From: Patescibacteria group bacterium
Lineage (GTDB): Bacteria > Patescibacteriota > Microgenomatia > Daviesbacterales > UBA10151
NCBI GenBank assembly: GCA_038064895.1
Contig: JBBTSA010000010.1
Span: 31,725-95,724 of the forward strand
Direction: 5' to 3'
Length of the DNA stretch: 64,000 nt
Made by a program: the position numbers and the translations under genes. Of this stretch, positions 18,286 through 20,708 are shown piece after piece. The notes below the pieces were generated by a model that worked only from the letters and a program-made list of their open reading frames with translations, made no database searches and was not told the DNA's origin. How positions within the stretch are numbered: the stretch's first letter is position 1; each line of letters begins with the position of its first letter.

Positions 18286-19605
18286 ATGTCTGAAAGAATA
18301 CTGCCTCAGGCACAAATTGAGGCTAATAATCATTTTGAATTAGAGGTTCAAACGCCTATAGAAATACCCCGCGACAGCAGAGGTAGAATCAGATGGCAAT
18401 TGCTAGAAACTGATCCTACACAATTAGCAAGGGTAATTGAGACTGAAGCACGCTCAGCAATGGAACAAGGAGTACCATTAAAACATAATGCCTTAAGTGC
18501 TAATGGCCTTTCATATCTATCTCGTGCTATTGTAGCCTATTATCCTGGACGCTATCCAGGACTTCGTCAGGCACTTGATTTGCCAACTGGTAATAAGCCA
18601 AAAAATTATTGGAATGACTCAACAATTATTGAACAAGAGGCCAGACAGTTCGTTGAAAGAAACGGTAATCTTACTCAAAAAACCTTAGAAAAAGCGGGGA
18701 ATAGTGGCATTGCTAATGCAGCTTACACCTATTATCCAGGTGGCTTGCAAGCTTTAAAAGATAATCTGGGTATTGTTTCTAGTCAAAAACCTAATGGTTA
18801 CTGGACTCACGATAGAATTGTAAATGAAGCTGTGGAATTTTATATGGAACATGGGCAATTATCCAGGGCTTCATTACATCAGGCAAGTAAAGATGATTTA
18901 GAAGCTGCTATTAAAAAGCATGCAGGAGGATTGGCGGCCTTACGAAAGGAACTAGGAATAGTGACTCAAAGAAAGCCCAATGGTTACTGGACATCTGAAA
19001 ATATTTTTGCACAAGCAGTAGATTTTTACACTGAACATGGCAATATAGTACCCGATACACTTACGGCACATAAAAGATATGACTTACTCTATGCAGCTGT
19101 TAACAGATATCCAGGTGGGATAAGACAACTACAAAAAGATTTGGGAATTAAACCTAAATCTAAAGATGTAGGATTTTGGATAGAAGATACTATTAGAGAA
19201 GAAGCTTTAGCTTTCTTTAACCAATATGGAGGATTAACACATACTCTTTTAGTAAGAAGTGGACGGTTTGACTTAAATCATGCTATCTATCATAAATATC
19301 CTGGCAGTATAAGACAACTCCAAACAGATCTAGGGGTTGAAAGTGGGAAAAGGCCTAATGGATATTGGACACCAGAAAATATCGAAAGAGAGGCGCAAGA
19401 GTTTTTTGATGCTCATGGTATATTGAACTTTGGTATTCTCAATAGGCAAAAAAGTTCTAGTCTAGCTAATGCTATTTCTATACATTACCCAGGAGGTTTA
19501 ATTGCTCTTAGAGAAAAATTAGGCATTGATGGAAAGCAGCAAGGAGTCATTAATTCAGATGAAGCAAATATTCAACTTGAGAGGCTATTGGAGGTACAGA
19601 TATGA
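18286..19605 (+). CDS. Tandem-repeat protein A (439 aa). It has about 7 degenerate repeats of about 58 aa (YPGG...LGI....KPNGYWT.ENI..EA.EF....G.L) and a C-terminal [D/E]ANxQLxRLL tail.
   Basis: An internal repeat is visible by eye. The N-terminal motif IEIPRDSRGRIRWQLLETDPTQLARVIETEA is shared with protein B. C-terminus NSDEANIQLERLLEVQI. Confidence 0.8.
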   Translation: MSERILPQAQIEANNHFELEVQTPIEIPRDSRGRIRWQLLETDPTQLARVIETEARSAMEQGVPLKHNALSANGLSYLSRAIVAYYPGRYPGLRQALDLPTGNKPKNYWNDSTIIEQEARQFVERNGNLTQKTLEKAGNSGIANAAYTYYPGGLQALKDNLGIVSSQKPNGYWTHDRIVNEAVEFYMEHGQLSRASLHQASKDDLEAAIKKHAGGLAALRKELGIVTQRKPNGYWTSENIFAQAVDFYTEHGNIVPDTLTAHKRYDLLYAAVNRYPGGIRQLQKDLGIKPKSKDVGFWIEDTIREEALAFFNQYGGLTHTLLVRSGRFDLNHAIYHKYPGSIRQLQTDLGVESGKRPNGYWTPENIEREAQEFFDAHGILNFGILNRQKSSSLANAISIHYPGGLIALREKLGIDGKQQGVINSDEANIQLERLLEVQI

Positions 19606-20708
19606 GTCCAGATAGAATAGGAAACCAGAATCAAGAAATACATTTACAACCAACTATAGAACCACCTAGAGACAGACGAGGTCGAATTAGATGGTCAGTA
19701 TTAAGACGTGACCAAGAATTATTAGTTAGGGTTATAGAAAGTGAGGCGCAAGGAATTATATCCAGTGGATTTGAACTAACTCCAAAACAATTCCAAGAAT
19801 CTGGAAGAGGCGATCTTGAAAATGCCATATATAAATACTATCCTGGAGGAAGGATAGCCCTAATAGAAAGTCTCGGAGTAGATACAACAAGAAGACCAAA
19901 TGGTTATTGGACTGAAGAAAAAATTAGAGAAGAGGCAGGACAGATTTTTCAGCAGGAAGGTAAATTAACACAAGCAGTTATAGTAGGAATGAGTAGGTCT
20001 CGCTTAGTTCGGGCAATCTCAAACTTTTATCCCGGTGGTTTAAGACAACTCAGAAAAGATTTTAACACGGAATATACGGCTAAACCGGTTGGATATTGGA
20101 CACCCGAACAAATTGAGATTGAGGCTCAATCATTTTATATACAGAATGGTGATATCTCAAATAATAAAATGAGGAGGGATAAAGCAGGAGCCTTGGCAGG
20201 AGCTATTACACGATTCTATCCTGGAGGTTGGCCTCAATTAAGAAAAAATTTGGGAATAGAATTACCTCGGGTTCAAAGAGGCTATTGGACTCAGGAAGAA
20301 ATTGAAAGGAAAGCATTGGAGTTTTATCAAAAGCATGGACAAATAAGCAGATATTCATTATCTAACAATGGAGAAGGAGCACTGGGTACTGCTATATCTA
20401 GCACGTATGGAGGCTCTTATGTAGTTCTTAGAGAAAGACTTGGAATTCCTGCAAGCAAAAGAAGAAAAAGAGGATATTGGACCTCAGAAAATATTGCAGT
20501 AGAGGCTTTAGAATTTTTTAATACATTCGGAGTTCTAACATATCCTGCCCTTACAGCTAATAAATACTATGGTTTACAAAGTGCTATTCATAGATCTCCA
20601 GGAGGATTGAGAGGATTAAAGTTAAAGTTGGGTATTGAGAAGACTAAACAAGATAGCGTTCCTTCTGAAGAAGCTAATCAACAGTTGAGAAGGCTACTGG
20701 AAGGTTAG
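19602..20708 (+). CDS. Tandem-repeat protein B (368 aa), a paralogue of protein A with about 6 repeats and the same C-terminal tail motif
   Basis: Start overlaps the protein A stop as ATGA. N-terminus TIEPPRDRRGRIRWSVLRRDQELLVRVIESEA. Repeats of YPGG...RPNGYWT.E.I..EA. C-terminus PSEEANQQLRRLLEG. Confidence 0.8.
   Translation: MSPDRIGNQNQEIHLQPTIEPPRDRRGRIRWSVLRRDQELLVRVIESEAQGIISSGFELTPKQFQESGRGDLENAIYKYYPGGRIALIESLGVDTTRRPNGYWTEEKIREEAGQIFQQEGKLTQAVIVGMSRSRLVRAISNFYPGGLRQLRKDFNTEYTAKPVGYWTPEQIEIEAQSFYIQNGDISNNKMRRDKAGALAGAITRFYPGGWPQLRKNLGIELPRVQRGYWTQEEIERKALEFYQKHGQISRYSLSNNGEGALGTAISSTYGGSYVVLRERLGIPASKRRKRGYWTSENIAVEALEFFNTFGVLTYPALTANKYYGLQSAIHRSPGGLRGLKLKLGIEKTKQDSVPSEEANQQLRRLLEG

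Follow-up and report, generated by a model that had tools for sequence, protein, structure and literature searches.

What are two adjoining genes for when both encode tandem arrays of a small unit that cannot be assigned to a known family? The genes, here called P1 and P2, lie in a 64,000-nucleotide stretch (the window) of contig JBBTSA010000010.1 from a Patescibacteria group bacterium, and their unit carries a GYW-type motif and a YPGG-type motif. We propose that P1 and P2 serve the enzyme encoded directly downstream, in which an SNF2-family ATPase is joined to a methyltransferase, as detachable targeting (adaptor) subunits, and that they would dock onto this enzyme by a C-terminal tail. We give this reading a probability of roughly 0.55. 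The original prediction, made from the sequence of the window, had dealt with the repeats and missed the partner: an SNF2-methyltransferase adjoins the arrays in every relative, fusions of the two occur, and a common C-terminal tail marks the array proteins.

An array operon with an SNF2-methyltransferase partner

P1 and P2 open an operon that continues with the enzyme and with a 181-aa protein. Its features are as follows (coordinates of the window).

18250..18278, forward strand: promoter-like site, TTGAAA-17-TAAAAT with a TG upstream of the -10 element, ending 8 nt before the P1 start codon
18286..19605, forward strand: P1 array protein, 439 aa, with an unstructured N-terminus, six four-helix GYW/YPGG units and a C-terminal tail helix
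18361..18588, forward strand: P1 unit 1 (aa 26-101), including the box IEIPRDSRGRIRW with RIRW for GYWT; hidden Markov model (HMM) domain at aa 50-101, E=6e-13
18592..19536, forward strand: P1 units 2-6, each an HMM domain (E from 1e-18 to 1e-26) that AlphaFold2 models with four helices
19555..19599, forward strand: P1 tail helix (aa 424-438), ..SDEANIQLERLLEVQ, predicted by AlphaFold2 at low confidence (predicted local distance difference test, pLDDT, of ~63-64 for the block)
19602..20708, forward strand: P2 paralogue, 368 aa, with an N-terminal box, five units and a tail
20661..20705, forward strand: P2 tail (aa 354-368), PSEEANQQLRRLLEG
20729..24580, forward strand: partner enzyme, 1283 aa, with an N-terminal domain, a linker domain, an SNF2-family ATPase, a class-I S-adenosylmethionine (SAM) methyltransferase and a C-terminal helical region
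20819..21133, forward strand: enzyme N-terminal domain (aa 31-135), candidate tail receptor
21620..23428, forward strand: SNF2-type ATPase core (about aa 298-900), motifs GDTGATKT, DESDEF and LTGTPISSS
23516..24223, forward strand: class-I SAM methyltransferase domain (aa 930-1165), motif I IGAGTC and the conserved D of VDIN
24583..25128, forward strand: 181-aa accessory protein, ending in the same tail as P1 and P2, TTDANRQLERLLQSQ
25260..25273, forward strand: terminator-like hairpin 3' of the 181-aa gene, a pattern match only

The 3' end of P1 and the 5' end of P2 overlap by 4 bp on the forward strand, and 20 bp separate the end of P2 from the start of the enzyme gene. The promoter-like site, a consensus match only, agrees at 10 of 12 positions and has the best score in the region. 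P1 is identical to NCBI entry AAB414_02030 ('hypothetical protein') and P2 to AAB414_02035 (P0032 in our set).

The enzyme matched phrog_62 'DNA helicase' (E=8e-21), the PDB profiles matched by its ATPase were those of SNF2h, CHD4, HELLS, Fun30, ISWI and DDM1, and the domains SNF2-rel_dom, Helicase_C and Methyltransf_11 are present in its orthologues. The window enzyme itself matched Methyltransf_11 at E=1.4e-4. When a profile of 20 orthologous methyltransferase domains was compared with the PDB, the best match was 2zfu, 'Cerebral protein 1' (E=1e-9), followed by generic class-I methyltransferases; we take 2zfu to be human RRP8/nucleomethylin, of the rRNA m1A methyltransferase family. Methyltransf_11/25, UbiE-like families and 2zfu were the only family matches of the domain. 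The PADLOC profile mad2 was also matched (E=2e-11), by the methyltransferase region alone (enzyme aa 925-1103 versus profile positions 252-418 of 492), and there was no other PADLOC match in the operon, so that membership in the MADS defense system was rejected. The 181-aa protein had no Pfam match and no known domain.

The arrangement recurs in the candidate phyla radiation (CPR). In 13 further CPR loci (L001, L002, L004, L005, L007, L010, L013, L014, L015, L031, L040 and two JGI contigs), 1 to ~9 co-directional array genes lie directly upstream of an orthologue of the enzyme. Where the arrays are separate genes, a small gene usually follows the enzyme on its 3' side. It is a homologue of the 181-aa gene in L001, L002, L007, L013 and L031, carrying the tail of its locus in three of these five (four of six with the window), and in two further loci it was matched by size only.

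A pattern-based scan with an enzyme alignment, limited to one genome per species, yielded 30 loci from Davies-, Levy-, Doudna-, Peregrini-, Gracili- and Saccharibacteria, Moraniibacteriota, Paceibacterota, and Taylor- and Kaiserbacteria. The remaining labels among the 30 are untyped or belong to third-party annotation (TPA) assemblies named 'uncultured Gammaproteobacteria' and 'Bdellovibrionales', which we believe to be mislabelled. Two architectures were found. Short enzymes (~1100-1310 aa) have separate array genes upstream, and long enzymes (~1380-1940 aa) have an N-terminal extension that is itself a tandem array. The fused array consists of canonical GYW/YPGG units in L028 and P0069, of HNH_repeat units in the L016 enzyme, of canonical helix-turn-helix (HTH) domains in the L030 enzyme (HTH_23, E=1e-11; Sigma70_r4, E=3e-8), of PEGW-type HTH-like modules in L026, L029, L020 and L036, and of other repeat types in L017 and L024. 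Such Rosetta-stone fusions in other lineages indicate that the arrays and the enzyme function together.

Two loci appear to hold damaged versions of the system. In L040 (13842-15281), adjacent short open reading frames of 133, 190 and 95 aa with 2, 3 and 1 repeat units lie just upstream of the enzyme and seem to be the pieces of one array gene broken up by pseudogenisation or a frameshift. In L039 (2493-6540), P0050, built of a 70-aa variant of the unit, ends in the linker that precedes SNF2 in P0125 and has an ISL3 transposase gene immediately after it; P0050 is probably a fusion enzyme disrupted by an insertion sequence, and with the transposase gene next to it, its gene context was set aside as uninformative.

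P1, P2 and the 181-aa protein have in common the ending ..EAN.QL.RLL(E/Q). In the other loci, too, every array protein of a locus bears one locus-specific version of the tail: EANAQIEALLKD in L002, AQEDLWKLLEV on six proteins in L004, QAN..LM(K/R)FLE in L005 and L010, QEAKEEFDKLFE in L014, QADELM(R/K)GLEEE in L015 and EAN(E/K/Q)QL(R/K)(R/K)LLE in L040. The tail core is 76% identical within loci versus 39% between loci, and the arrays of P1 and P2 are only 37-39% identical. Of 161 family members, 140 have a loose form of the motif within their last 24 residues; among random internal windows the share is 4.8%. Since proteins of L014, L010 and L040 that lack the GYW module carry the tail, as does the small non-repeat protein, the constant feature is the tail and not the repeat type.

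The presence of separate tail-bearing genes coincides with that of the enzyme N-terminal domain. All 10 distinct enzymes that have such genes possess the domain, and even at E<=10 it was not found in any of the other 20, whose arrays are fused or which have no array. In the fused enzymes the conserved linker domain comes straight after the array, and there is no intact tail, with at most a degenerate trace in P0069. On the simplest reading, the tail and the N-terminal domain are a non-covalent equivalent of the covalent fusion.

Other endings and other shared termini were also seen. The C-termini of P0049, P0087, P0090, P0093, P0112 and P0163 have ..(S/P)F(E/D/Q)(E/D/N)(F/Y)L(K/R).. in place of the EAN..L..LLE helix, and this alternative motif may represent a second docking class. 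In L014 (6633-13258), both upstream tail-bearing proteins and the enzyme start nearly alike, with MKEFDPRLAGSVFMLP.., MKEFDPSLKDSVFMLP.. and MKEFDLRLRGSVFESAP.., a sign that their 5' ends may have recombined recently or that they have an N-terminal signal in common.

The array proteins and their repeat unit

By their sequences P1 and P2 are paralogues, with 37-39% identity over ~325-346 aa in BLASTP (E ~1e-70). We then searched both with unit profile A2, made from 79 units, 78 of which came from proteins other than P1 and P2 and one of which was the last domain of P1 itself. The profile found six domains in P1 (aa 50-101, 103-166, 167-228, 229-291, 293-353 and 355-417) and five in P2 (aa 44-96, 97-157, 161-221, 224-285 and 287-348), with independent E-values of 1e-12 to 1e-26 each. 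The two paralogous, repeat-built open reading frames had thus been recognized correctly in the original prediction, the profile domains lying far beyond chance. The number of repeats, given there as 6-7 in both proteins, had to be revised to 6 in P1 and 5 in P2. The GYW-type motifs stand at residues 107, 171, 233, 296 and 359 of P1 and at residues 101, 164, 227 and 291 of P2, and the YPGG-type motifs show the same spacing. The period is therefore 62-64 aa (189 nt) and not ~58 aa as first estimated. At the DNA level, a 51-nt segment encoding the GYW head occurs in 7 copies that are 189 nt apart.

The conserved N-terminal box described before is present in both proteins (IEIPRDSRGRIRWQLLETDPTQLARVIETEA and IEPPRDRRGRIRWSVLRRDQELLVRVIESEA in P1 and P2, respectively) and is kept in orthologues. 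It is not a separate element: because the first profile domain of each protein starts with the box, the box is best regarded as the head of a first, degenerate unit, with RIRW for GYWT.

From 196 units we derived the consensus rkP.GYWtpEnIE.EAr.F....G.Ls...L...grsdL..AI...YPGG..aLrekLGi. The GYW and YPGG motifs had been called invariant. Among the 79 units, this holds strictly for just two residues, the W of GYW and the first G of PGG; the Y of GYW (81%), the Y of YPGG (97%) and the P (95%) are near-invariant, and P1 itself has the variants NYW, GFW and HAGG. The conserved positions belong mainly to the hydrophobic core, and conserved basic residues are found at the domain entry and on helix 4.

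An AlphaFold2 model of a single unit (79-row alignment) reached a pLDDT of 90 and a predicted template modelling (pTM) score of 0.76. It consists of four helices, of 15 aa after GYW, 6 aa, 10 aa, and 9 aa after YPGG, in agreement with the compact helical repeat that had been suggested, and each unit is thus predicted to be an independently folding four-helix domain. The model of full-length P1 (15 orthologues) gave a mean pLDDT of 82.7 and a pTM of 0.32. As its domains are locally confident and their mutual orientation is undefined, P1 would resemble beads on a string. Repeats of the same index are 48% alike across orthologues versus 37% between different repeats inside P1, which indicates that the arrays are old and that every module is individually constrained. 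An exhaustive profile search for the unit returned 1,839 cluster representatives at E<=1e-3; the count falls to 951 at E<=1e-10 and to 314 at E<=1e-30, and distant relatives with a GYW head must be expected in the low-scoring part.

To place the unit, we compared it with catalogued families. Whole P1 and P2 matched nothing above threshold in Pfam, NCBIfam, PADLOC and PHROGs except phrog_20046, of unknown function (E=2.8e-8). The 79 single units gave zero Pfam matches, P1 matched none of the PDB sequences, and the sole PDB match of the unit profile, an engrailed homeodomain variant (E=0.02), was not above threshold. At the HMMER level, then, the earlier statement that the repeat cannot be placed in a known family holds. 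The labels HAMP_2 and PF26683 (Tyr_recomb_halo_N) on distant relatives were discarded, the former as faint and below the cutoff and the latter as a faint match only.

Profile-profile comparison pointed to Pfam HNH_repeat (PF18780; gathering score, 26 bits). The N-terminal array of the L016 enzyme, from Doudnabacteria, has a KP.GYW head like that of the window units and matched PF18780 at E=3e-15 (56.6 bits). In hhalign, the window-type units (A2) aligned to these L016-type HNH_repeat members (A5) with a probability of 94.5% (E=8e-8, 59 columns) and to the 70-aa variant of P0125 and P0050 (A6) with 99.0% (E=2e-18), and A6 aligned to A5 with 96.4%. Reversed profiles, column-shuffled profiles and unrelated arrays, used as controls, stayed at <=4%. 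When the GYW head was left out, the probabilities were 29.5% for A2-A5 directly, 97.9% for A2-A6 and 59% for A6-A5. PF18780 gave no match at E<=1 for P1, P2 or any of the 79 single units. Since the links are direct and by way of the 70-aa variant and come without a PF18780 match, we conclude from these alignments that the window unit probably belongs to the HNH_repeat superfamily as a divergent, uncatalogued branch, and is not a member of the Pfam family.

The guess of an 'endonuclease-associated' repeat is accordingly partly right, at the superfamily level. No HNH or other nuclease domain was found with Pfam and NCBIfam in either array protein, elsewhere in the operon or in 10 long family members. 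Like the window unit, HNH_repeat is a tandem helical repeat of ~55-68 aa, and the bona fide HNH_repeat members of L016 have in common with it the KP.GYW head, the G..x..A..LG end helix and the N-terminal slot of the same enzyme family, whereas only the window type has the YPGG turn and the 'G.Ls...L' segment. HNH_repeat is listed among repeat families without a structure (PMC8078820); in the literature searched it appears only in that list, and no description of its function was found. The repeats of GIY-YIG endonucleases (P0052 and P0053) likewise have a KPxGYWTxE..EA head, a tandem arrangement and a tie to a DNA enzyme. They differ in being ~45 aa long, in resembling the window unit over the 19 columns of the head only (the remainder reading ..TR.EF....AY.AA.KNGWLDE.C.HM), and in being fused to a nuclease without any SNF2-methyltransferase association.

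Proposed targeting by docked arrays and its rivals

In the mechanism that we propose, the array string of P1 or P2 would end in a short amphipathic helix, S.[DE]EAN.QL.RLLE, that docks onto the enzyme N-terminal domain (aa ~31-135). The array would bind a target, most likely nucleic acid and probably DNA, and the docked array would place the ATP-driven translocase and the methyltransferase on that target. Because the tail is common to P1, P2 and the 181-aa protein, the three may use one docking site as alternative or competing subunits. The analysis itself shows the make-up and fold class of the arrays, the recurring operon, the array-enzyme fusions of other lineages, the conservation of the tail within each locus and the joint occurrence of the N-terminal domain and separate tail-bearing genes. 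What the tail docks to, what the arrays bind, what is methylated and what role the system plays we infer from the comparisons described here. A nucleic acid ligand, probably DNA, is favored because the partner is an SNF2 double-stranded DNA translocase, because HTH domains occupy the same slot in sister enzymes, and because the repeat superfamily accompanies HNH and GIY-YIG DNA endonucleases.

Several points weigh against this reading. The association of the N-terminal domain with separate tail-bearing genes (Fisher's p=3e-8) comes from loci that are phylogenetically related, and the 20 'long' loci were screened for separate GYW-type genes only; when GYW-type genes alone are counted, it becomes 9/10 versus 0/20 (p=7e-7 by the hypergeometric formula). 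For a DNA ligand in particular, P1 is neutral (isoelectric point, 6.9), helix 1 of the unit bears a conserved acidic stripe (E11, E14 and E16), and the methyltransferase matched no N6_Mtase or other DNA-methyltransferase family among the Pfam, NCBIfam and PDB profiles.

The neutral charge of P1, the acidic helix 1 and a methyltransferase that is not of the DNA type make the targeting of protein or ribonucleoprotein a serious rival. P1 and P2 would still be partners of the enzyme, with the arrays acting as scaffolds that present a protein or RNA substrate to an Rrp8-like methyltransferase. We regard this as rather unlikely, given that SNF2 ATPases are double-stranded DNA translocases (PMC5512222), that canonical DNA-binding HTH domains fill the same slot in the sister enzyme of L030, and that repeats of the wider superfamily go together with HNH and GIY-YIG DNA endonucleases.

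Alternatively, P1 and P2 or the 181-aa protein could be regulators that occupy the docking site to inhibit or activate the enzyme, as an antitoxin or an assembly factor does, rather than targeting subunits. The occurrence of one tail on proteins of different make-up, including a small non-repeat protein, does suggest competition for a single site. However, the covalent fusion of array and enzyme in many lineages fits a constitutive module better than a titratable inhibitor, and the diversified paralogues, of which a locus may hold up to ~9, agree with a set of different specificities, which leaves regulation improbable.

The surroundings of some loci bring up secretion. In L001 (516-9000 and 15785-21305) and two JGI contigs, the cassette lies near genes for type IV secretion system (T4SS) pilin/TrbC, TraC-like and TraG/VirD4-like proteins, Peptidase_M23, Replic_Relax and resolvase, which suggests that some CPR genomes carry it on conjugative or integrative elements. 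T4SS substrates typically bear C-terminal signals, and with three loci adjoining T4SS pilin/TrbC, TraC/TraG-like ATPase or Replic_Relax genes, the tail could be taken for a secretion signal and P1 and P2 for effectors or cargo exported by a T4SS or conjugation apparatus. This is very improbable: there are no T4SS genes near the window operon or most loci, the tail differs from locus to locus and goes with the N-terminal domain of the enzyme, and the intact tail is gone in array-enzyme fusions, apart from the trace in P0069.

That P1 and P2 are remnants of DNA-binding proteins of homing endonucleases or mobile elements, functionally unrelated to the neighboring enzyme, is scarcely credible in spite of the remote similarity to HNH_repeat and GIY-YIG endonuclease repeats, since neither the two proteins nor the other CPR family members examined have a nuclease domain, synteny with the SNF2-methyltransferase is strict and fusions with it occur, and the arrays are intact and positionally conserved.

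The targeting reading may also be set against known systems. In the DarB-type dyad, known from polyvalent proteins of phages and conjugative elements, a DNA adenine methylase precedes the ATPase in the chain (Iyer et al. 2017, PMC5512222). Like the window enzyme, the dyad joins an SNF2-family ATPase and a methyltransferase in one polypeptide, and the helicase part of the window enzyme matches phrog_62; the dyad is borne by phages and conjugative elements, and some loci of the window enzyme family lie among conjugation genes. The window enzyme differs in that its methyltransferase is C-terminal and of the Methyltransf_11/Rrp8-like class, and the dyad is without trans-acting repeat adaptors or docking tails. 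The window copy, moreover, is chromosomal. No relative of the enzyme was found among IMG/VR viral contigs, which argues against a phage origin.

Type I restriction-modification (R-M) systems resemble the proposed system in outline, as their methyltransferase, coupled to an SF2 translocase, is guided by a recognition subunit that is a protein of its own and can be exchanged, and a locus may hold several alternative recognition genes. However, recognition would rely on strings of small helical domains instead of the two target recognition domains (TRDs) of type I R-M, the methyltransferase is not of the N6-adenine DNA type, and Pfam, NCBIfam and PADLOC revealed neither homology to HsdS (Methylase_S/TRD), HsdM or HsdR nor a nuclease in the operon. 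In the literature searched we found no description of an array/SNF2-methyltransferase system of the window type, which apparently has not been described so far. A role in conflict or mobile-element function, which we offer as a conjecture, would fit the quick exchange of array types and the presence of several paralogues at one locus.

Genomic setting and significance

In the window, the operon lies in a segment bracketed by two tRNA genes, which also holds the following.

17599-17671, reverse strand: tRNA-Thr, bracket of the segment
17814-18146: pterin-4a-carbinolamine dehydratase gene, inside the segment
25337-26323, forward strand: RhuM-family gene, inside the segment (Virulence_RhuM, E=2e-102; PADLOC defense candidate PDC-S05, E=5e-133)
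26475-26548, reverse strand: tRNA-Gly, bracket of the segment

The RhuM-family gene stands directly 3' of the operon, before the tRNA-Gly coordinates; in other loci, AbiEii and RhuM/PDC-S05 genes also adjoin the cassette. An integrase, direct repeats of tRNA fragments and a shift in GC content were all looked for and not found, so that, flanking tRNAs notwithstanding, an origin of the window copy as a genomic island is unsupported.

Genes of cell division and cell wall synthesis are found near several cassettes. In L007, L008 and L011, which belong to one CPR lineage, three array genes, the enzyme and two small genes lie between ftsA and ftsZ (for example, L007 4930-14336), and in L005, L010 and L014 the cassette abuts Mur-ligase genes. 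In the window, ftsZ/ftsA (38707-41199, reverse strand) are ~14 kb from the operon. This proximity could be a recurrent link or just shared ancestry.

Three other genes of the window were noted. The gene at 4353-9530 (reverse strand) encodes a predicted surface protein of 1725 aa with a signal peptide, a Pro/Ser-rich N-terminus, many Ig-like repeats of ~90 aa (..ITFG....L.TTISAD.DG.YV..LT..D.AGN..) and a C-terminal membrane anchor. A PIN-domain (VapC-like) gene (37731-38144, reverse strand; Pfam PIN, E=6e-12) lies between an isoleucyl-tRNA-synthetase-like gene and ftsZ, with no obvious antitoxin open reading frame of at least 120 aa beside it. The gene at 12511-13341 (forward strand) has a weak match to the squalene/phytoene-synthase family (SQS_PSY, E=1.7e-6, just above the cutoff), which, if genuine, would be unusual for a reduced CPR genome.

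Taken together, the results define a conserved multi-gene system of the CPR in which an SNF2 motor and an unusual methyltransferase go with exchangeable arrays that would serve recognition and would dock by a peptide. They also give a first functional context for an uncatalogued repeat family and, by kinship, for Pfam HNH_repeat. A broader view, which we hold only tentatively and think more apt to be wrong than right, is that the loci represent a CPR-wide, undescribed class of ATP-driven methyltransferase machines, whose targets would be programmed by interchangeable strings of helical modules, either in cis or as a set of up to ~9 trans-acting adaptors that plug in by a locus-specific C-terminal peptide. 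If true, this would be a new modular, multi-specificity modification system, serving defense, counter-defense or epigenetic functions, analogous but unrelated to type I R-M. If the arrays are modular readers of nucleic acid, they would be relevant to protein engineering and to CPR biology, including the conflicts of hosts, phages and mobile elements in reduced genomes.

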